From assembly GCF_013122565.1 (NCBI RefSeq), contig NZ_CP053258.1: a stretch of DNA of 64,000 bases; one strand, 5' to 3'. Under the pieces are notes generated by a model. That model saw nothing but the letters and a program-made list of their open reading frames with translations. It ran no database searches and was not told where the DNA came from. The DNA comes from Escherichia coli (GTDB lineage: Bacteria; Pseudomonadota; Gammaproteobacteria; Enterobacterales; Enterobacteriaceae). Positions 46,559 to 57,500 of this stretch are shown in pieces; the first letter of the stretch is position 1; every line of letters begins with the position of its first letter. The position numbers and the translations under genes are program-made.

Positions 46559-46589
46559 GGCCGCCATGTGGCGGCCTGAATTATTTTTT
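46559..46589. terminator. Rho-independent terminator after yjiA
   Basis: Hairpin ggccgccatgtggcggcc followed by ttattttttg. Confidence 0.6.
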
Positions 46590-46883
46590 GTTCTGATCGC
46601 GCAGCATCGCTTCACGTAAAATTGCGTTCAGGCGAGTTTGATAGCCTTTACCAGGTCGCTTCAGCCATTCCATCACATCAGCATCAATACGCACCGAAGC
46701 CTGGGTTTTCAATGGCCGATAAAACTTACCGCGTTCTGCGTTAGACCATTGCTCATCGCTGGAAGGAGGGATATCGCTGTAATCAATATCTTCGTCGGAC
46801 TTATTCGCCAGTGCCTTCAGTTCGGCCTCATGCTGCACATCGAGTGTAGAGGAGGTCCCTCGTTTATGTTTAACCATGCTCAT
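46581..46883 (-). CDS. brnA: BrnA-like antitoxin (ribbon-helix-helix, DUF4415 type)
   Basis: DIDYSDIPPSSDEQWSNAERGKFYRPLKTQASVRIDADVMEWLKRPGKGYQTRLNAILREAM; start overlaps brnT 3' end; the 148-aa ORF-track model is an upstream extension. Confidence 0.75.
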   Translation of the reverse strand: MSMVKHKRGTSSTLDVQHEAELKALANKSDEDIDYSDIPPSSDEQWSNAERGKFYRPLKTQASVRIDADVMEWLKRPGKGYQTRLNAILREAMLRDQNKK

Positions 46884-47157
46884 AGCGACTCCTCTCTTTA
46901 CGATCTGCTTTTCGTGCACTGATGATGCGAATAATTTCATTTCCGCTTTCGAAACGGATGGTATGCGCAGCCAGAATAACCACGATACCGTGAACCACGC
47001 CGATAGTCTGCCAGCGATACTCACCATTTTCTATGCGATCTTGCTGTGACAAATGTTGTAGATCATCAAACACTAACACCGCATCTTCAAAGCGGATGCC
47101 ATGTTTCACCCGATTACTTTTGGCCTTGTTTGCATCCCATTCAAACTCCATTGGCAT
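46870..47157 (-). CDS. brnT: BrnT-like toxin (DUF497, RelE-fold ribonuclease)
   Basis: MEFEWDANKAKSNRVKHGIRFEDAVLVFDD signature; exact start (47151/47157/47166) uncertain. Confidence 0.8.
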   Translation of the reverse strand: MPMEFEWDANKAKSNRVKHGIRFEDAVLVFDDLQHLSQQDRIENGEYRWQTIGVVHGIVVILAAHTIRFESGNEIIRIISARKADRKERSRYEHG

Positions 47158-47172
47158 AGTTGCCATCCCTAA

Positions 47173-47215
47173 TTGTATATACAAAAATGTATCTACAATT
47201 ATTCTGCAATTATAG
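47173..47215 (-). promoter_or_regulatory. Putative brnTA promoter/operator (TATAAT plus palindromes TTGTATATACAA and TTGTAGATACA)
   Basis: Minus-strand TATAAT at 47212..47207 followed by two related palindromic sites immediately before the brnT start. Confidence 0.4.
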
Positions 47216-47311: not shown

Positions 47312-48046
47312 TCAAACCTGATAGCAATCCACCAAAAATGCCATCATTTCACTGGCATCTTTGCTGTGATAAAAGCGCACCATTTTGCTGTTGAACTCCA
47401 GCGCACGAGCTGCGGGTACACTAATGGGATTGTAACCGTGGCGCATTAACCAGCCGTTCATCATATGGCGACTGGTACGCTTGTTGCCATCAAAGAAAAA
47501 CTGAAAATAAGCACCAAATAAAAACATTGCCAGCGCCCCTTCGAACGGTGGCATCTCTTTTATTTGTGCCACACCTGCGGCGAATATTCGATTCAGTTCA
47601 GGTGCACCTGCTTCAGTGGCTGGTGGAAAATGAGTGCCCAGTTCACCGAGATGAACGCGCGTATTGTAATGTAACTCTTCACCTTCGCCGCGAAAAACGC
47701 CCCACTCCAGCGCCTCATTACGCGCAATAATGCCGTTAAGCAACGTGAACGTTTTCTTATCAAGGTCGAAACGCCCGGATTGCACAAGTTCAATCAGTTT
47801 TTTTGCGCTATCTGCCAGGTTCAACACCTGCTCAGTATCACTGACCTTATGCCCGCCAACGGTGACACCATCGAGCAGCGTTTTAACTTCAACAAAGGTA
47901 TAGGGGTTATTTTCCAGTTGCGCGGCATCCCAGACAAACCCTGCCATATGCGTTTTGAAGGTAAACAAGGCTGCGCGCGTACCGACAATTTGCATCGCCG
48001 GGATGGCATTTGCATTCCAGCTCAGGTCCAGTAGTTTGGTTGTCAT
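47312..48046 (-). CDS. Fic/Doc-fold protein with non-canonical active-site motif QFFFDGNKRTSR (Gln in place of the catalytic His)
   Basis: QFFFDGNKRTSRHMMNGWLMRHGY aligns to the Fic motif HPFx[DE]GNGRxxR...GY; N-terminal AAQLENN resembles the inhibitory-helix motif; SD AAGGA before ATG; 43 bp downstream of the GmrSD-like gene. Confidence 0.7.
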   Translation of the reverse strand: MTTKLLDLSWNANAIPAMQIVGTRAALFTFKTHMAGFVWDAAQLENNPYTFVEVKTLLDGVTVGGHKVSDTEQVLNLADSAKKLIELVQSGRFDLDKKTFTLLNGIIARNEALEWGVFRGEGEELHYNTRVHLGELGTHFPPATEAGAPELNRIFAAGVAQIKEMPPFEGALAMFLFGAYFQFFFDGNKRTSRHMMNGWLMRHGYNPISVPAARALEFNSKMVRFYHSKDASEMMAFLVDCYQV

Positions 48047-48089: not shown

Positions 48090-50189
48090 TTAAGCCATCG
48101 CGTTATCCATCTGCTTTTCAAATGCCTGACGAATTAATCCCATCACATAAGGAAGCTCAGAAAGATCGCTGAAACCTACTTCAACATCGCCATTGCCCCA
48201 ACGGCCTATATCTGTGACATCTTTAGCCATACATTTTGGGTCAACCAGTTCATGGAATGGCATATTTAGTGATAAACGTAAGCGACTTTTTTGCGGCACC
48301 ACATCAACAAAATTCGTCTCCGCTTTGAAGGCAACATAGAGCTTCAATATTTCTCGCGTAACCCCAGCGTCCAGCGCCATAACGGCATCAGAAAGGCTGT
48401 CAAAAAGTACGCGGATATGCGTACCTTCTTCAAGTTGCGGGAAATCAGCAAGGATATATCCCGTTCCTCGTTCAATGACGGTGCGATAACGAGCCAACAC
48501 GTCTTCCGAAAGTTTGGGGATCGCCCAGACGTCTATTGCCAGCTCGGCCAGACGTTCCGCTCTCTTTTGTATCGCTGCACGATCCCATATTTCACATTGC
48601 CCTAACCCCGTGTTCAGGCGTAATGGACTTTCCTTAAAGCCACCTTTTATATCTCGCTTCTTCGTAAATGGACGGTCGCTGTAGCTTGAGTTATAGCCAG
48701 TTAACGTTAAATTACCCAACGTATGGAGCCACTTTTTATGGATACGCTTCCATTCCGGGCCAAGGTCATCGCGCCACTTCGCCGATAAATTAGGGTTCTG
48801 CGGCATGATATGTTCAATCGTATAAGTGTCAACATAGACCCGTTCTTTACGACCGTGGTTTTCAAATCTGCGTAGCCAATAGCTGCGATTACGGAAGTTG
48901 TAGAGGTCGCGAGTTTTCAGTTCACGTTGAAATTCATCATCATCCGGGAAACGACGGTAGGAAGGCAGTTCCAGCAAATGCGCCGCAATGCTCTCCAGAT
49001 AACGCTCTTTATCCAGCACTTTGTAAAACGTGGCGAAGGTTTTGGTAAATGAGTTGGTGGGAATGGCACAGACTGCGCGCCGGAAGATATACGACTCAAT
49101 TAAACGCGTGGCACTTAAAAAATCCGCGGCAGAAAGAATTCCCTGTTTATAGTCGTGATAAAGCACCAACAGGAACGGCCATGCAGCATCAACTTTCAGT
49201 TCCCGCAGATCCTGAAACGCCATCTTTAATATTTTGTCTTTTTCGCTATCCAGCGCCATCGCACAAAAATAATCCGCATAGGTACGAATATCCGCAACCA
49301 GCGCCTCCATCCCGCTATCCATCACTCCTGGTTTTCGCGCATAGCGTTTAAAGGCTTCATAGACATCACCAATTCGCGGAATCTCACCTGTTTTTACCGT
49401 CAGGTAATTACGCATAAAACTGTCGAAATAGTCAGTGTATCCCTTCTGACCAAACGCCAGCTCCATGGGCCGCCAGTAATCGTCGTACAGTTGGCTTTGA
49501 TGTTCTGGCTCCAGCCCCATCAAAACATAGTTGCGTACCAGATCCGCCTGACTCAGCGCTTTCCCTGTAGAGTTCATACTTTCGAAGATAAGTTGCGGAT
49601 TATCCTGACCGCGGTTCAAGGCGACATCCACAATCAGCAGTTTTGAAAGGCCCTGACATAACGCGGTGAAATTGCCGTGGAGTTTGCCTATTTGCTCATG
49701 GAAAAACTCAAAATTCTCTTTCACGCGTAGAGAGCAATTTTCTGCCAGCGGTTTTTGCCTAATCAATGCCAGCAGGCTCTCTCTGTCCGTTTGCGTAAGA
49801 AGTAACTTAAAACCACGCTCGCCCGATTCATACGGATTGAGCAGATAATAGTTTCGTAATTTCATGGCGGAGAAACCATCCATCACCTCGTCATCACCAA
49901 GATGTCTGGACAACGCTTCCAGCAATAACATCGCCGTTGTCAGGCGTTGCTGACCGTCAATCACCAGTAAGGGAGAGATCCCCGAAACCTGATATAGGCC
50001 CTGTTCGATATACACCACCGAGCCGATGAAATGCGCCGGGATATCATCACGCTGCCCGGCACGTATTACATCGTCCCAGAGCTGGCGGCACTGTTCCTCT
50101 GACCATGAATAAGTACGCTGATAAATGGGAATAACGAATTGCTGAGAGCGTTTTAGAAAATCGAGTAATCGGGCTTCGGTGGCTTTCAT
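48090..50189 (-). CDS. GmrSD-family Type IV (modification-dependent) restriction endonuclease, DUF262 + DUF1524 with extra C-terminal domain, 699 aa
   Basis: DUF262 motifs IPIYQRTYSW and DGQQRLTT; DUF1524 His-Me motifs EHIMPQ and HTLGNLTLT; SD AGGAG before ATG. Confidence 0.8.
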   Translation of the reverse strand: MKATEARLLDFLKRSQQFVIPIYQRTYSWSEEQCRQLWDDVIRAGQRDDIPAHFIGSVVYIEQGLYQVSGISPLLVIDGQQRLTTAMLLLEALSRHLGDDEVMDGFSAMKLRNYYLLNPYESGERGFKLLLTQTDRESLLALIRQKPLAENCSLRVKENFEFFHEQIGKLHGNFTALCQGLSKLLIVDVALNRGQDNPQLIFESMNSTGKALSQADLVRNYVLMGLEPEHQSQLYDDYWRPMELAFGQKGYTDYFDSFMRNYLTVKTGEIPRIGDVYEAFKRYARKPGVMDSGMEALVADIRTYADYFCAMALDSEKDKILKMAFQDLRELKVDAAWPFLLVLYHDYKQGILSAADFLSATRLIESYIFRRAVCAIPTNSFTKTFATFYKVLDKERYLESIAAHLLELPSYRRFPDDDEFQRELKTRDLYNFRNRSYWLRRFENHGRKERVYVDTYTIEHIMPQNPNLSAKWRDDLGPEWKRIHKKWLHTLGNLTLTGYNSSYSDRPFTKKRDIKGGFKESPLRLNTGLGQCEIWDRAAIQKRAERLAELAIDVWAIPKLSEDVLARYRTVIERGTGYILADFPQLEEGTHIRVLFDSLSDAVMALDAGVTREILKLYVAFKAETNFVDVVPQKSRLRLSLNMPFHELVDPKCMAKDVTDIGRWGNGDVEVGFSDLSELPYVMGLIRQAFEKQMDNAMA

Positions 50190-50473: not shown

Positions 50474-52819
50474 ATGACATCAACTAATTTCAGCCAGATT
50501 GCAGCCTTCCTGTGGTCTGTCGCCGACCTGTTACGCGGCGATTTTAAACAATCACAATATGGACGAATTATTCTTCCTTTTACCCTTTTGCGTCGTCTGG
50601 AATGCGTACTCGAAACAACGAAAGACGCGGTCATTGCTGAGGCGCAAAAAGTAAAAGCCATGAAACTGCCGGAGGAAGCCCAGGAGAAAATGATCCTGCG
50701 GGCGACTAATGGCCTGACGTTCTTTAACGCCTCAGCGATGGACCTCAGCAAAATGGGGCAAAATGGCATACAGGACAACCTGGAAAACTACATCCAGTCG
50801 TTCTCTTCGGATGCCCGCGAAATTTTCGAACACTTCAAGTTCAGCGAGTTTGTCGGACAGCTGGCGGATGCGAACTTGCTGTTCAAAGTGGTGCAAATAT
50901 TCGCTAAAGCAGATTTATACCCGGAGCATGTCACCAACCACGATATGGGGCTGGTGTTTGAGGAGCTGATCCGCCGTTTTGCCGAGAGTTCTAACGAAAC
51001 CGCCGGGGAGCACTTTACCCCGCGTGATATCGTCAATCTGACCACCTCGCTGGTGTTTTTCGATGATGATGACGCGCTCAATAAAGACGGCATCATCCGC
51101 ACCATTTACGACCCAACAGCGGGAACCGGCGGCTTTCTCTCCTCCGGCATGGAGTTCGTCCACAAACAAAACCCCAATGCCGTGATGCGCGCGTTTGGTC
51201 AGGAGTTAAACCCGGAATCCTACGCCATCTGTAAAGCCGACATGCTGATTAAGGGCCAGGACGTCAGCCTTATCAAACTCGGCAACACCCTGTCCAACGA
51301 TCAGCTCCCCGCAGAAAAATTCGATTACATGCTTTCTAATCCACCTTTCGGCGTGGACTGGAAAAAGATAGAAACCGACATCAACAACGAGCACAAACTC
51401 AAAGGTGCCGATGGTCGCTTTGGCCCCGGCCTGCCCCGCGTCTCTGACGGTTCGTTGCTGTTTCTGCTGCACCTGATCAGCAAAATGCGCGATGCCAAAA
51501 GCGGTGGCGGGCGGATCGGCATCATTCTTAATGGTTCGCCGTTATTCACCGGCGGTGCAGGAAGCGGTGAAAGCGAGATCCGCCGCTACATTCTGGAAGC
51601 GGATTTGCTGGAAGGCATTATCGCCCTGCCCACCGACATGTTTTACAACACCGGTATCGCTACCTATGTTTGGGTGCTGTCCAACAAAAAAGCGCCAGAA
51701 CGCAAAGGTAAAGTCCAGCTTATCGACGCCAGCAACCTGTGCGGCAAAATGCGTAAGTCGCTGGGATCAAAACGTAATATTCTCGGGGAGGAGGATATTG
51801 GTTTAATCACCCGCACGTTTGGCGATTTCGAACCCGTTGCCACCACCACGCTCGCGGCGTTAGGCCTGGAGAAAGCACCTGAACAAAAATCCAGCCGGGG
51901 ACGCCAGCCGACCACAACCAAAGCTGAGGCGGCAAAAACCTTTGCCAGCAAAGTCTTTTACAGCACCGAATTTGGCTATCGACGCATCACCGTTGAGCGC
52001 CCGTTGCGCCTGTCGTCTCAGATCACCGATGACGCTATTGCCACATTGCGCTTTGCGCCGAAGCCGTTTAACGCGCCGATGGCACAACTGTATGACGCCT
52101 TTGCTTTCCAGTGGCAGGACGGTAATTACGGCGACTTAACAGCGGTAGAAAGTGAAGCACGCGCCATTCTTAAAGCCGATTTTAGCGAGCTGAAAGAGAA
52201 GCAAATTAAAGATCTGCTCGACAGCAAATTATGGCTGGCCCAGCGCGGGTTAATGGAAAAAGCGCGGCGTATACAGGCGGCGATGGGGATGCTGGCGGGT
52301 GGCAAAGAGACCGTTAGCAATGACTTTAATCAGTTCCAGTTGACGCTGAAAGAGGCGTTCAAAACCGCAGGCGTGAAGCTGGATGCGAAAGAGAACAAGC
52401 AGTTTATCGATGCTATCACCCGCAAAAACCCGGACGCCGAGCCGGTAGTCAGCAAGGTACTGAAAGAAGCGGCACAACCGCTGTATGGCGCGTTTGAGTA
52501 CCACGGAAAGGTTGTGGAGTTTGAGCCGGATGGCGACCTGCGCGATAACGTGAATGTGCCGCTGAACCCGACGGTATCTACCAGCGAGTTGATCGAGGGT
52601 TACTTCAAAGCGGAAGTATTGCCGCACGTCGCGGATGCGTGGATTAACGCCGATAAGCGCGATGCGAAAGATGGGGATATCGGGATTGTGGGGTATGAAA
52701 TTCCGTTTAACCGCCATTTTTATGTTTATCAGCCGCCGAGGCCGCTGGAGGAGATTGATGCGGATCTGGATGCGGTAAGCGCTGAGATTATGAAACTGTT
52801 GCAGGAGGTACATTCCTGA
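50474..52819 (+). CDS. hsdM: Type I restriction-modification N6-adenine DNA methyltransferase subunit HsdM (long form, about 780 aa)
   Basis: AdoMet motif [11 protein letters not shown] and catalytic NPPFG; stop overlaps hsdS start; ORF track extends to 50465. Confidence 0.9.
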
Positions 52820-54240
52820 TGGCAGGGTTAAATAAATATCAGGCGTATCCGGAGTATAGGGATTCTGGGGTGGAGTGGTTGGGGGAGATACCCTCACACT
52901 GGAGCGTTAGCAAGCCCCGTTATATGTTTAATTTCGGCAAAGGGCTTACAATTACCAAAGAGAATCTCCAGGACGACGGGATACCTTGCATTAACTACGG
53001 TGAAATCCATTCAAAATATGGTTTTGAAGTATCCCCCAAAATTCACCCATTGAAATGCGTTGATGAGAAGTATATAAAAGATAATTCAGGCTCATTACTT
53101 TTAAAAGGAGACATTATTTTTGCAGACACATCTGAAGATATTGATGGTTCCGGTAATTTCTCACAACTAATCAGCGATAATATTTCATTCGCTGGTTATC
53201 ATACAATTATTGCCAAACCACTTAATAGAAGAAATTGGCGATTTTATGCTTATCTTCTTGATTGCAAAGAGTTGCGAACCCAAGTTAGACATGCAGTTAA
53301 GGGAGTAAAGGTATTTAGCATTACACAAGCTATTTTACGCGGCCTTTCTATTTGGCTCCCTACGGATGATGAACAGAGTAAAATAGCTGATTTCCTCGAC
53401 CACGAAACTGTAAAAATCGACAACCTAATCAAGAAACAACAACAACTCATTGAACTACTGAAAGAAAAACGTCAGGCAGTGATTAGCCATGCGGTGACCA
53501 AAGGGCTAAATCCTGATGTGCCGATGAAAGATTCTGGGGTTGCGTGGTTGGGGAAAATACCAAAACATTGGGAAATGAGTAAACTACGCTACATGTTTCG
53601 CTTCGGAAAAGGTCTAACAATTACAAAAGAACATCTGCACGATGAGGGGGTTCCATGTGTTAACTATGGCGAAATACATTCTAAATTTGGTTTCGAAATC
53701 GACCCTCAAATTCACAAATTAAAATGTGTTGATGAATCGTACATTCTAAATAACCCCGACTCATTGATCTATAAAGGAGATATTATATTTGCAGATACAT
53801 CTGAAGACATTGACGGCGCTGGTAATTTTACACAATTGATTAGCGATAACCAAATATTTGCCGGTTATCACACTATTATATTACGCCCTCTTAATAGAGA
53901 GTCCTTAAGGTTTTATGCATATATATTTGATAGCAAAGCACTACGGGCACAAATTAGTAATGCAGTGAAAGGCGTGAAAGTATTTAGTATTACTCAAGCC
54001 ATTCTTCGAAGTACATCGATATGGTTTCCACCATTATCAGAACGAGAACGTATTGTTGCATTTCTCGATAACCAAACAATAAAAATCGATACCCTAATTG
54101 AGAAACAACTCCACCAAATAGCTCTCCTAAAAGAACGCCGCACCGCCCTTATCTCCGCTGCCGTCACCGGAAAAATCGACCTACGCAACTGGACCGCCCC
54201 CATCCCCGAAGCGGAAACACCCACGGAGGCCAGCGCATGA
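52819..54240 (+). CDS. hsdS: Type I R-M specificity subunit HsdS with two near-identical target-recognition halves
   Basis: Two tandem TRD-plus-conserved-helix units (KPRYMFNFGKGLTITKENL... and KLRYMFRFGKGLTITKEHL...); ATGA overlap with hsdR. Confidence 0.9.
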   Translation: MAGLNKYQAYPEYRDSGVEWLGEIPSHWSVSKPRYMFNFGKGLTITKENLQDDGIPCINYGEIHSKYGFEVSPKIHPLKCVDEKYIKDNSGSLLLKGDIIFADTSEDIDGSGNFSQLISDNISFAGYHTIIAKPLNRRNWRFYAYLLDCKELRTQVRHAVKGVKVFSITQAILRGLSIWLPTDDEQSKIADFLDHETVKIDNLIKKQQQLIELLKEKRQAVISHAVTKGLNPDVPMKDSGVAWLGKIPKHWEMSKLRYMFRFGKGLTITKEHLHDEGVPCVNYGEIHSKFGFEIDPQIHKLKCVDESYILNNPDSLIYKGDIIFADTSEDIDGAGNFTQLISDNQIFAGYHTIILRPLNRESLRFYAYIFDSKALRAQISNAVKGVKVFSITQAILRSTSIWFPPLSERERIVAFLDNQTIKIDTLIEKQLHQIALLKERRTALISAAVTGKIDLRNWTAPIPEAETPTEASA

Positions 54241-57200
54241 ACCACGACATTACAAAAGAGGTTAACCTGCAAAACGACATTATCGCGCAGATGGTGGAAA
54301 AAGGCTGGATTGTCGGCAAAGGTGACGGCTACGACCGGGAACGTGCGCTATACGCACAAGACACCTTAAACTTCGTAAAAACCACCCAACCGCAGGAGTG
54401 GGAGAAATTCGCACGCGTTTATCCCAACGACACCGAGCGCCATTTCCTCGACGCGCTGGTCGCGCAGCTTAAAAAAGCCGACAGCAACGCCACTGATATT
54501 CAGTCGCGCACCTGGGGTACGCTCGGCGTACTTCGCCACGGCCTGAAAATTCGCAATGCCCGTTTTTCGCTGTGCCAGTTTAAACCGGAACATAATCTCA
54601 ACCCGGAAACGCTGGCGCGCTATCAGCAGAATATCTGCCGTATTGTGCCGGAACTGGTCTACAGCCCGTATGCCTCAAATAGCGTCTTTGCAGAAACGGG
54701 CGTGAAAGCCAAAAAATGGCGTATCGATCTGGTGCTGTTTATCAACGGCCTGCCGGTTGCCACGCTGGAGCTAAAATCCGAATTTAAACAGGCGGTGCAG
54801 AACGCCATTGCCCAGTACAAAAAGACCCGCCTGCCGAAAGATCCCGCGACCAATAAACCTGAACCGCTGCTGACCTTTAAGCGCGGCGCGCTGGTACATT
54901 TTGCCGTCAGCCAGTATGACGTCTTTATGACCACCAAACTCGCCGGTGACAGCACCTTCTTCCTGCCGTTTAACAAAGGCACCAAAGACGGCGGCGCAGG
55001 CAACGAGATCCCCGAAGATACTCGCCGCTACGCCACAGATTATCTGTGGAATGAAGTGCTGCTGCCGGACAACTTATTAAAAATCCTCGCCAGTTTTGTC
55101 CATTTGCAGATTGAAGAAAAAGAGGACTGGAACGGGCTGAAAGCGAAGAAAGAGAGCCTGATTTTCCCGCGCTATCACCAGTGGGATGTGGTCAATAAAC
55201 TGCTGGAGGCCGCGACGATTGAAGGCACCGGCCACAAATACCTGATTCAGCACAGCGCCGGTTCCGGTAAATCGAACTCCATTGCCTGGACCGCCCACCA
55301 GCTTTCTCGTCTATACGACGTTAACGGGGAAAAACTGTTCCACTCCGTTATCGTGGTGACGGACCGTACGGTGCTGGACGACCAGCTTCAGGACACCATC
55401 TGGCAGTTCGAACATGCCGACGGCGTGGTCGGGCGCATCAATAACAGAGAGGGCGACGGCTCCAAATCGGAAAAGCTCGCCAGCGCGCTGGAAAACTCGC
55501 AGCCGATAATCATCGTCACCATCCAGACATTCCCGTTCGTACTGAAAGCTATCGAAAACAGCATCAGCCTGAAGCAGCGTAAATATGCGGTGATTGCCGA
55601 CGAAGCGCACTCATCGCAGAGCGGTTCCACCGCCCGTCAGCTTAAAGAAGTGCTGATGAGCGAAGAGATGGATGATGACGTGGTGCTGTCGTCAGAAGAT
55701 ATTCTGGATGCGACCATTGCCGCCCGGAAAGGCAGCAGTAACCTGAACTACTACGCCTTTACCGCCACGCCAAAATCCAAAACCCTGGAACTCTTTGGTC
55801 GCTGTCCGCGTCCCGATGAACCGGCCTCAAAAACCAATAAACCTGAGGCCTTCCACGTCTACTCCATGCGCCAGGCAATCGAAGAAGGCTTTATCCTCGA
55901 CGTGCTGAAAAACTACACCAACTACAAAGTGGCGTATCAGTTGCTGCAAAAGCTGGAAGATGAAAACCGCGAAGTCGATAGCAAACGGGCGAAGGTAAAA
56001 CTCAATCAGTGGGTGACGCTGCACGACCACAATATCTCGCAGAAGGTGAAGGTGATTGTGGAGCACTTCCGCAAACATGTGATGCATCTGCTTGGCGGCC
56101 AGGCTAAAGCGATGGTGGTCACCAGTTCACGCAAAGCCGCCGTGCGCTACAAGCTGGCGTTTGATAAATACATTAGCGAGAACAATTACCAGAAAATCAG
56201 CGCGATGGTGGCGTTTTCCGGGGAAGTTGAATTCCGGGAAGGCGACCATAACAGCCTGGCATTGTTAAACCAGAAATTTACTGAAATAAACATGAACCCC
56301 GGCCTGAAAGGGCGGGATATGCGCAAAGCCTTCGACAGCGATGATTATCAGGTCATGCTGGTTGCCAATAAATTCCAGACCGGTTTTGACCAGCCGAAGC
56401 TGTGCGCGATGTACGTGGATAAACCCCTCGGTGGCGTCGAGTGCGTGCAGACACTCTCCCGCCTGAACCGCACCTATCCGGGCAAAGCGGAATCAGGCAC
56501 TTTTGTCCTCGATTTTTATAACGATCCAGACGAGATCCTCGGCGCATTCCAGCCCTATTTCCAGACGGCGGAACTGACCGATGTCAGCGATCCGCAGCAG
56601 GTGTTCGATCTGTTTGAAAAACTGCGCGCCACGCAGATTTTCCAGTGGCATGAAGTCGAGCAGTTCTGCGAGGCATACTTCATCAAAAATAAATCGAATG
56701 CGGCGATCAGTAATATCTGCAAACCGGCGGTCGAACGCTGGAAAAAGCGTTATCTGATGGCGATAGACGCCTATTTGACCGCCAAAGAGATGTTCGAGCG
56801 CACCAAAAAAACGGGCGATACAGTATTAATCACCAATGCGGAAAACAGCTTTAAAGCCTGTAAGCAGGAGAAAGATCGTCTGGAGATTTTCAAGAAAGAT
56901 CTCGGCAGCTTTGTTCGTTTTTATGAATTTATGTCGCAGATCGTTGAATACGATGACAAGGATCTGGAAAAGCTAAGCCTGTTTGCTCGTCATCTGCGTC
57001 CGCTGCTGCATGAGCAACGTCTGGAAGAGGATGAAATTGATCTCAGTAATGTGGAGATGAGTCACTATCGTTTATCGAAAATCCATGAGCAAGATTTACG
57101 CTTACAGGAAGAAACGCCTGACTATACGCTGGATGCAAGTAATAATATTGGTACGGCAAAAGCGAAAGATAAAAAAGAGGAGTTTTTATCGCAGGTGCTT

Positions 57201-57500
57201 TCTCGGATGAATGAATTATTCATTAGCGACCATTTGACCGACAAAGATATGATCAGCAATGCTTTTGCGGTGTATAACAAAATAACTGAAAATGAAAATG
57301 TTATGACACAAATTAAAAACAATCCCCCAGAACAAGCGATTCTTGGTGATTTCCTCCAGGCAGTTGATAATGCTGTAATGGACAGTAATGACGCTCGGCA
57401 AGAATTTATGTTGCAATATTTATCCGATCCAGCTCGGGCAAAGGGCTTTGCTTATCTGATGTTTGATATGCTAACGGGGAAAATTGCTTTACCAACATAA
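54237..57500 (+). CDS. hsdR: Type I R-M restriction subunit HsdR (helicase/endonuclease), 1087 aa
   Basis: N-terminal PD-(D/E)xK (IDLVLF...LELK), helicase motif I QHSAGSGKS, motif II IADEAHSS. Confidence 0.9.
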   Translation: MNHDITKEVNLQNDIIAQMVEKGWIVGKGDGYDRERALYAQDTLNFVKTTQPQEWEKFARVYPNDTERHFLDALVAQLKKADSNATDIQSRTWGTLGVLRHGLKIRNARFSLCQFKPEHNLNPETLARYQQNICRIVPELVYSPYASNSVFAETGVKAKKWRIDLVLFINGLPVATLELKSEFKQAVQNAIAQYKKTRLPKDPATNKPEPLLTFKRGALVHFAVSQYDVFMTTKLAGDSTFFLPFNKGTKDGGAGNEIPEDTRRYATDYLWNEVLLPDNLLKILASFVHLQIEEKEDWNGLKAKKESLIFPRYHQWDVVNKLLEAATIEGTGHKYLIQHSAGSGKSNSIAWTAHQLSRLYDVNGEKLFHSVIVVTDRTVLDDQLQDTIWQFEHADGVVGRINNREGDGSKSEKLASALENSQPIIIVTIQTFPFVLKAIENSISLKQRKYAVIADEAHSSQSGSTARQLKEVLMSEEMDDDVVLSSEDILDATIAARKGSSNLNYYAFTATPKSKTLELFGRCPRPDEPASKTNKPEAFHVYSMRQAIEEGFILDVLKNYTNYKVAYQLLQKLEDENREVDSKRAKVKLNQWVTLHDHNISQKVKVIVEHFRKHVMHLLGGQAKAMVVTSSRKAAVRYKLAFDKYISENNYQKISAMVAFSGEVEFREGDHNSLALLNQKFTEINMNPGLKGRDMRKAFDSDDYQVMLVANKFQTGFDQPKLCAMYVDKPLGGVECVQTLSRLNRTYPGKAESGTFVLDFYNDPDEILGAFQPYFQTAELTDVSDPQQVFDLFEKLRATQIFQWHEVEQFCEAYFIKNKSNAAISNICKPAVERWKKRYLMAIDAYLTAKEMFERTKKTGDTVLITNAENSFKACKQEKDRLEIFKKDLGSFVRFYEFMSQIVEYDDKDLEKLSLFARHLRPLLHEQRLEEDEIDLSNVEMSHYRLSKIHEQDLRLQEETPDYTLDASNNIGTAKAKDKKEEFLSQVLSRMNELFISDHLTDKDMISNAFAVYNKITENENVMTQIKNNPPEQAILGDFLQAVDNAVMDSNDARQEFMLQYLSDPARAKGFAYLMFDMLTGKIALPT

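Follow-up and report, generated by a model that had tools for sequence, protein, structure and literature searches.

A mosaic Type I specificity gene in Escherichia coli that pairs two diverged target-recognition domains of one family

The hsd operon and its specificity subunit

The window, a stretch of 64,000 nucleotides (nt) from Escherichia coli contig NZ_CP053258.1, carries the genes hsdM, hsdS, and hsdR on the same strand (Table 1). All three are full-length open reading frames (ORFs) with overlapping stop and start codons, the hsdM stop and the hsdS start overlapping by 1 nt (TGATG), and on this arrangement they read as an intact, translationally coupled Type I operon. HsdM contains HsdM_N and N6_Mtase domains, followed by an unassigned C-terminal extension of about 320 amino acids (aa). 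At the nucleotide level, hsdM is 95 to 96% identical, and hsdR 92 to 96% identical, to the corresponding genes of three comparison loci (L001 to L003).

The operon lies in the yjiA-yjiN immigration control region (ICR), beside a GmrSD-type Type IV enzyme and brnAT, a context that is the same in other E. coli strains. HsdM and HsdR have only remote similarity to EcoKI (Type IA) and EcoR124 (Type IC), and the ICR island is reported to contain no Type I families other than IA, IB, and ID (EcoSal review, PMC12707154). Its location in the ICR, together with this remoteness from EcoKI and EcoR124, suggests that the operon is probably Type ID, a family marked by >90% identity of HsdM and HsdR to the prototype or by subunit complementation, and by methylated adenines 6 bp apart.

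The HsdS sequence exactly matches WP_171459876.1/QJU25683.1 of E. coli (P0121 in our set of relatives). It contains two Methylase_S domains (PF01420; residues 25 to 211, E value of 1.1e-07, and residues 248 to 433, 4.5e-11), is labeled Specificity_I by PADLOC (4.8e-128), and can be aligned over its full length (residues 22 to 464) with the EcoKI HsdS (2y7c_A). Protein alignment and a nucleotide profile both show that conserved regions (83 to 100% identity) alternate with variable target-recognition domains (TRDs; 34 to 54% identity to unrelated alleles). The first 20 residues are 95 to 100% identical to those of relatives P0006, P0010, P0004, and P0007, and the N-terminal conserved region is 95 to 97% identical in nucleotide sequence to L001 to L003; the central conserved region is 83 to 99% identical to all three of these alleles and, in amino acids, 90 to 100% identical to all aligned alleles.

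Table 1. Coordinates of the hsd genes and of the segments of hsdS within the window
Feature	Position	Strand	Description
hsdM	50474..52819	+	781 aa from the start annotated in relatives; ORF reaches back to 50465
hsdS	52819..54240	+	Type I specificity subunit, 473 aa; ORF
N-terminal conserved region	52819..52890	+	aa 1-24; common to alleles of the HsdS family
TRD1 core	52891..53358	+	aa 25-180; "X1" cassette; GC 37.6%
Central conserved region	53359..53559	+	aa 181-247; coiled-coil helix and linker
TRD2 core	53560..54027	+	aa 248-403; "X2" cassette; TRD1 paralogue (73% aa identity); GC 35.7%
C-terminal conserved region	54028..54240	+	aa 404-473 and stop codon; overlaps hsdR start (ATGA)
hsdR	54237..57500	+	1087 aa; TIGR00348 hsdR (6e-53); PADLOC REase_I

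Similarity and divergence of the two HsdS halves

HsdS aligns with itself without gaps, residues 14 to 227 against residues 237 to 450, at an offset of 223 aa (669 nt), with identity at 148 of 214 positions (69%) and a BLOSUM62 local score of 793, against 32 ± 5 (maximum, 49) for 200 shuffled sequences. The identical 669-nt register is recovered by a repeat search on the DNA. An earlier note on this DNA had described the halves as alike along their whole length, TRDs included, and in this it was right: identity in the TRD cores (residues 25 to 180 versus 248 to 403; 114/156, or 73%) exceeds that in the conserved helices (residues 181 to 227; just 55%), such that the likeness is not a matter of the inter-TRD helices only, and both peptides that it quoted are present, at residues 35 to 71 and 258 to 294. 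Long blocks are invariant between TRD1 and TRD2 (e.g., FADTSEDIDG and KGVKVFSITQ), and the inter-half identity in family members with unrelated TRDs is 22 to 35%.

The TRDs had also been called near-identical, which overstates the resemblance of two cores that differ at 42 of 156 positions. At the DNA level, the halves are 68% identical, with about 45 to 46% identity at third codon positions and a longest common exact word of 11 nt, and the comparison of TRD1 with TRD2 gives a pS of 0.78 to 0.83 (i.e., saturated synonymous sites) and a dN of about 0.19. The two TRDs are old, diverged paralogues of a single TRD family.

Efficient RecA-dependent exchange in E. coli requires roughly 20 to 30 nt of perfect identity. 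What stands of the proposed direct repeat of roughly 700 bp is its in-frame 669-nt register; its low DNA identity, saturated synonymous sites, and 11-nt longest word make it a poor substrate for recombination, contrary to the suggestion that it could recombine to produce a half-size HsdS. Gene conversion, considered as a source of the half-to-half similarity, was rejected on account of the saturated synonymous sites.

hsdS is a mosaic of two TRD cassettes

Both halves of HsdS have close relatives that are joined elsewhere to unrelated partners. The N half is 95 to 97% identical to P0006 and P0010, both of which have unrelated C-TRDs, and the C half is 96 to 97% identical to P0004 and P0007, both of which have unrelated N-TRDs; in amino acids, TRD1 is 97% identical to the N-TRD of P0006, and TRD2 is 97% and 96% identical to the C-TRDs of P0004 and P0007, respectively. 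Nucleotide comparisons give the same partition. TRD1 is 96 to 98% identical to L002 (dS, 0.073; dN, 0.016) and 34 to 54% identical to L001 and L003, and TRD2 is 96 to 99% identical to L003 (dS, 0.075; dN, 0.011) and 37 to 47% identical to L002; along the gene, the profile is 96 to 98% identical to L002 at positions 52865 to 53465 and 96 to 99% identical to L003 at positions 53565 to 54065. The alleles carrying X1-like or X2-like cassettes with unrelated partners are other enterobacterial hsdS alleles.

Because each TRD is 96 to 99% identical in nucleotide sequence to a cassette with a foreign partner, yet TRD1 and TRD2 are saturated with respect to one another, recombination within conserved regions must have put the gene together: hsdS is a mosaic in which an X1 N-TRD and an X2 C-TRD were joined by ordinary cassette shuffling, and not the internal tandem duplication that had been proposed. 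Judging from the profile, the breakpoints must have lain in conserved regions common to the alleles, with the joining exchange within positions 53359 to 53559. X1 and X2 are ready-made cassettes that circulate among enterobacterial hsdS alleles, and homologous recombination in the conserved regions flanking the TRDs happened to link the one to the other.

A recent in situ tandem duplication of one hsdS half would leave near-identical TRDs and a recombinable 700-bp repeat from which a half-size HsdS could arise; it would also explain why the halves are in exact, in-frame register and alike throughout, and genuine cases exist among the relatives, the nucleotide identity between halves and the length of their exact run being 98.7% and 578 nt in P0043 (L005) and 96.3% and 529 nt in P0032 (L006). 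hsdS itself, at 68% against the 96 to 99% of L005 and L006, does not qualify as a recent within-gene TRD duplication, and its third codon positions, saturated synonymous sites, short exact words, and cassette relatives with unrelated partner TRDs all point away from such an event. Nucleotide divergence and the cassette relatives together refute a recent duplication for this gene, and we regard it as scarcely credible. As a general lesson, synonymous sites are to be examined before protein self-similarity is called a recent or recombinogenic duplication. Both P0043 and P0032 are metagenomic relatives.

The mosaic allele is rare. A megablast search with the gene did not find it in 5,426 complete RefSeq E. 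coli genomes, of which 114 contain the HsdS family at a query coverage of ≤31% (conserved regions only), and the 90% cluster of HsdS consists of three sequences. Since the allele is absent from these genomes, X1 plus X2 is not seen as an ancestral, widespread pairing. Rarity would also suit a nonfunctional recombinant, i.e., a decaying or orphaned hsdS in which the odd TRD pairing is inconsequential, but the full-length, overlapping reading frames of the operon, the 92 to 96% nucleotide identity of hsdM and hsdR to the genes of other strains, and a dN/dS of 0.15 to 0.22 (at a dS of about 0.07) relative to the closest, donor-like cassettes, a value that denotes purifying selection, make decay very improbable.

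The mosaic resembles the products of domain movement (DoMo) and TRD shuffling in Helicobacter pylori, Moraxella catarrhalis, and Staphylococcus aureus (TRDs B and P), in which a given TRD family serves as TRD1 in some alleles and as TRD2 in others, and cassette exchange proceeds through conserved flanks (PMC3077401, PMC3983042, PMC6241649, PMC5399793). It differs from DoMo in that its TRDs are old paralogues brought together by shuffling between alleles; fresh within-gene copies are seen in L005 and L006. What the gene exemplifies is already familiar: TRD cassettes are shuffled, TRDs are interchangeable between positions, and HsdS is rotationally symmetric. It reveals no new mechanism.

X1 and X2 form separate clades, and the nearest relatives of X2 from outside its clade are 72 to 76% identical; TRDs of the X1 clade occur at the C position as well, with 89 to 90% identity (P0022, P0047, and P0076). 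The TRD family is found widely across Enterobacteriaceae and marine Gammaproteobacteria. In a set of representatives clustered at 50% identity, it occupies the N position only in 62, the C position only in 56, and both in 3, and it is thus about equally common at the two positions, with same-family pairs a small minority. The higher proportion in the relative set (26/120) is an overestimate, since the query carries the family twice, once at each position. By rough estimate, 3 pairs among 121 full-length matches are compatible with random pairing among many TRD families, and a same-family TRD pair within one HsdS, though uncommon, is already known. The idea that selection for palindromic targets has enriched same-family pairs was rejected, given that the less biased representative library contains just these three.

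Predicted symmetry of the target

HsdS is rotationally symmetric, such that a TRD transferred to the opposite position recognizes the reverse-complementary sequence (PMC3874165, PMC3983042). In the M2S and R2M2S complexes, the antiparallel conserved helices keep both TRDs inverted, and two TRDs of the same family would thus be expected to recognize the same 3- to 4-bp half-site, or closely related ones, as an inverted repeat with a fixed spacer. Such a target would be bipartite and palindromic or nearly so, and each half-site would contain one methylated adenine, the two being on opposite strands. Given one TRD family, whole-length similarity, and the rotational symmetry of HsdS, an inverted-repeat-like site is a reasonable prediction, and to this extent the palindromic target suggested by the earlier note is retained; strict palindromy is not implied by TRDs that are 73% identical, because a few substitutions can alter a half-site (PMC3983042). 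The target is probably symmetric or nearly so, its symmetry and its spacing both being inferred.

Half-size HsdS proteins, whose single TRDs are brought together in homodimers, offer a precedent: two TRDs of the same kind, in inverted orientation, recognize an interrupted palindrome, as in the natural enzyme NgoAV (GCA N8 TGC), EcoR124I delta50 (GAA N7 TTC), truncations of EcoDXXI, the S. aureus CC398-1 half-S, and a lactococcal truncated S (PMC3874165, PMC6158711, PMC12418389). Where a family is given for these half-size systems, it is Type IC (PMC3874165), a statement that does not extend to the staphylococcal and lactococcal ones. In the present case, however, both TRDs reside in one full-length chain and are not identical, so that symmetry is possible and not guaranteed. 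The characterized Type ID enzymes StySBLI, EcoR9I, and KpnAI, which are likewise encoded by chromosomal hsd operons in the ICR, differ in having asymmetric targets with unrelated half-sites, namely, CGA(N6)TACC, AGCA(N6)TGA, and GGCA(N6)TTC, respectively.

The two specificities may alternatively have diverged, the enzyme then reading a bipartite site of the usual asymmetric kind, in which neither half-site is the reverse complement of the other. The 42 differing core positions and the separation of X1 and X2 into distinct clades would suit such divergence, as would the ease with which a half-site changes: H. pylori TRDs of the same group that are a few residues apart read different half-sites (CTA versus CCA and RTAY versus VTAY), and no identity threshold predicts specificity among them (PMC3983042). 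Against this, both TRDs retain the long invariant blocks, and far more divergent TRDs, with as little as about 36% identity, may have a common target (PMC5399793), and we consider diverged specificities somewhat unlikely. An intact Type I HsdS in the ICR, with shuffled TRDs that are old paralogues and a palindromic or near-palindromic target, is the best joint explanation, and we hold it to be fairly likely.

Searching PDB sequences for a relative that matches in the TRDs themselves and has a known specificity returned framework-level matches only (the HsdS proteins of EcoKI, T. tengcongensis, and M. jannaschii), from which no half-site can be inferred. Literature searches by the protein accessions of the allele and its relatives gave no match, and one on identical TRDs in HsdS returned only domain-movement papers. 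The closest lead is Eco851I, a Type I enzyme from a clinical isolate of E. coli that recognizes GTCA(N6)TGAY and methylates at an interval of 6 bp (PMC3874165, Table 1): its target is near-palindromic, the half-sites differing in degeneracy only (GTCA versus RTCA), and its spacing fits the Type ID interval. A target of this type is what would be expected of two diverged TRDs of the same family, and we treat it as a lead only, to which the present allele is not linked. The sole enteric match in the literature on Eco851I and on GTCA/RTCA N6 motifs was a KpnBI-type CAAA(N6)RTCA in Klebsiella pneumoniae, with no tie to the X1 or X2 TRDs.

The practical value of the allele is modest: it predicts, for a rare E. 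coli lineage, a methylation and restriction motif that is symmetric or nearly so. Because near-identical X1 and X2 cassettes exist elsewhere, a single methylome experiment comparing them with this allele could assign half-sites to the TRD family. It is conceivable, though improbable, that the allele represents a naturally occurring HsdS outside Type IC, full length and in a single chain, that reads a palindromic or near-palindromic site through TRDs differing perhaps only in degeneracy, after the manner of Eco851I, an orphan E. coli specificity; if so, the allele and its P0006-like and P0004-like relatives would form a natural series for mapping the 42 TRD differences to half-site degeneracy.

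The hsd operon and its specificity subunit

The hsd locus lies in the yjiA-yjiN immigration control region (ICR), flanked by E. coli chromosome (btsT-yjiX-yjiA of the window is 98.9% identical to that of many strains), with the gene order btsT, yjiX, yjiA, brnA/brnT, a Fic protein, a GmrSD-family enzyme, hsdM, hsdS, hsdR, a hypothetical protein, yjiR, rpn, and mdtM, a layout that recurs in E. coli 32F4 and in contigs with related alleles. This region is described as a defence island, in which Type IV enzymes and the brnAT, symE, and rpn loci accompany Type I families IA, IB, and ID (PMC12707154). The hsdM product has HsdM_N and N6_Mtase domains and is spanned entirely by the PADLOC Type I methyltransferase model PDLC03029 (1.5e-279), hsdR matches TIGR00348, and translational coupling links the three genes (TGATG where hsdM meets hsdS, ATGA where hsdS meets hsdR). 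Given an ICR that holds IA, IB, and ID, and since EcoKI (IA) and EcoR124 (IC) are only remotely related to HsdM and HsdR of the window, we infer from this location and remoteness that the operon is probably Type ID.

HsdS contains two Pfam Methylase_S domains (residues 25-211 and 248-433), is matched over its full length by the EcoKI specificity subunit (2y7c_A; E = 4e-11 in a PDB sequence search), and scores 4.8e-128 against the PADLOC Type I specificity model. It is identical to E. coli WP_171459876.1/QJU25683.1; in some comparisons it was represented by its cluster representative P0001, which differs from it by 2 residues. The allele occurs in 0 of 5,426 complete RefSeq E. coli genomes. The gene is a rare allele of a known system, produced through a known mechanism.

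Features of the hsd locus and of two metagenomic relatives (TRD, target-recognition domain)
Feature	Coordinates	Strand	Details
BrnT/BrnA toxin-antitoxin pair	46581-47184	-	upstream of hsd operon
Fic-family protein gene	47312-48046	-	upstream of hsd operon
GmrSD-family (DUF262/DUF1524) Type IV-like enzyme	48090-50189	-	699 aa; PADLOC 3e-216; upstream of hsd operon
hsdM	50474-52819		C-terminal extension of ~320 aa past N6_Mtase (HsdM residues about 460-784), without Pfam assignment; GC 52.5%
hsdS	52819-54240	+	473-aa product
TRD1 region	52865-53465		DNA identity 96-98% to P0006 allele, 36-54% to P0004 allele
TRD1 core cassette (X1)	52891-53358		GC 37.6%
Central conserved region of hsdS	53365-53565		DNA identity 95-97% to P0006 allele, 85-99% to P0004 allele
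TRD2 core cassette (X2)	53560-54027		GC 35.7%
TRD2 region	53565-54065		DNA identity 37-47% to P0006 allele, 96-99% to P0004 allele
ORF directly downstream of hsdR	57566-58279	+	237 aa; GC 26%
rpn-family gene (recombination-promoting nuclease/transposase_31)	60350-61270	-	intact, 306 aa
hsdS of P0043	L005 5001-6431		
hsdS of P0032	L006 3235-4617		

Divergence between the two halves of HsdS

Residues 14-227 and 237-450 of HsdS align without gaps at an offset of exactly 223 aa (669 nt, a register also recovered by a repeat search), with 148 of 214 positions identical (69%) and a local score of 793. Shuffling one half 200 times gave scores of 32 +/- 5 (at most 49), and in family members whose TRDs are unrelated, the baseline identity between halves is 22-35%. 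The similarity between halves described in the earlier note is thus real and not confined to the conserved helices, as the TRD cores (residues 25-180 and 248-403) are 73% identical (114/156) and the helices (from residues 181-227) are 55% identical (26/47).

The same note took the TRDs to be near-identical and the repeat to be an internal tandem duplication open to recombination; near-identity, a recent date for the duplication, and recombination potential are not supported. Nucleotide identity between the aligned halves is 68% (76%, 83%, and 45% at codon positions 1, 2, and 3), synonymous differences are saturated (proportion, 0.78-0.83), and dN is 0.19-0.23. The duplication is ancient, and TRD1 and TRD2 are paralogues that split long before the window allele arose. 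In E. coli, RecA-dependent recombination becomes sharply less efficient once perfectly matched stretches are shorter than about 20-30 nt, and the two halves have no exact word longer than 11 nt in common, whatever the register; this makes the repeat very poorly suited to the deletion proposed in the earlier note. Recent within-gene duplications do exist in the HsdS family, and the earlier description fits these genes, not the window hsdS: two metagenomic relatives, P0043 and P0032, have halves 98.7% and 96.3% identical in nucleotide sequence, with exact runs of 578 and 529 nt, respectively. At the P0043 locus, transposase fragments lie on both sides of the operon; at that of P0032, a GmrSD gene sits between hsdS and hsdR.

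Cassette origin and predicted target

The gene is a mosaic of cassettes in circulation, and close relatives of its two halves occur in different proteins. The N-terminal half is 95-97% identical in protein sequence to P0006 and about 90% identical to P0010 and P0012, all three with unrelated C-TRDs; for the C-terminal half, the close matches are P0004 and P0007 (96-97% identity), both with unrelated N-TRDs. Across hsdM and hsdR, DNA identity to every comparison allele is 92-96%, and relative to their nearest cassettes, TRD1 has a dS of 0.073 (dN/dS, 0.22) and TRD2 a dS of 0.075 (dN/dS, 0.15). The simplest history is one in which homologous exchange within conserved regions joined a pre-existing X1 N-TRD to a pre-existing X2 C-TRD; such exchange is the classical source of new Type I specificities (PMC3874165). 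Both cassettes are far richer in AT than hsdM, hsdR (50.0% GC), and the stretch of hsdS that encodes its conserved C-terminal region (50.7%), which suggests a compositional history other than that of the operon backbone.

The TRD family is widespread. A search with the TRD1 core of a library of 50%-identity representatives returned 222 clusters at E <= 1e-30. Of 121 full-length proteins from the best 150 of these, 62 carry the family solely at the N position, 56 carry it solely at the C position, and 3 have it at both, and X1-clade TRDs (89-90% identity) sit at the C position in P0022, P0047, and P0076; the family therefore shifts freely between positions, a movement known from H. pylori, M. 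catarrhalis, and S. aureus (PMC3077401, PMC3983042, PMC6241649, PMC5399793). Same-family pairs are a small minority, which by a rough estimate is consistent with random pairing.

HsdS is rotationally symmetric, such that a TRD moved to the opposite position recognizes its half-site as the reverse complement (PMC3874165, PMC3983042), and two same-family TRDs therefore predict an inverted-repeat-like target; to this extent the symmetry proposed in the earlier note is reasonable. Interrupted palindromes are the targets of single-TRD homodimers such as NgoAV, truncations of EcoR124I and EcoDXXI, S. aureus half-S, and lactococcal truncated S (PMC3874165, PMC6158711, PMC12418389). Sequence alone does not settle strict palindromy: TRDs of only about 36% identity can share a target (PMC5399793), and differences of a few residues within one TRD homology group, with no identity threshold, can give different half-sites (PMC3983042). 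We consider a palindrome, or half-sites differing in degeneracy only, the probable outcome, and half-sites unrelated to each other the less likely one. Eco851I, from an E. coli clinical isolate, recognizes the near-palindrome GTCA(N6)TGAY, and its methylation interval of 6 bp is the usual one for Type ID (PMC3874165, PMC12707154); this is the kind of target that would be expected from two diverged same-family TRDs, which makes Eco851I a possible lead.

Neighbouring genes

The 237-aa ORF after hsdR, which has no match in NCBIfam or PADLOC, encodes a product that looks hydrophobic and resembles a membrane protein; it also follows hsdR in E. coli 32F4, and a SymE toxin gene takes its place at the loci of the P0006 and P0004 alleles. 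The counterpart of the rpn-family gene in E. coli 32F4 is an annotated pseudogene with an internal stop.
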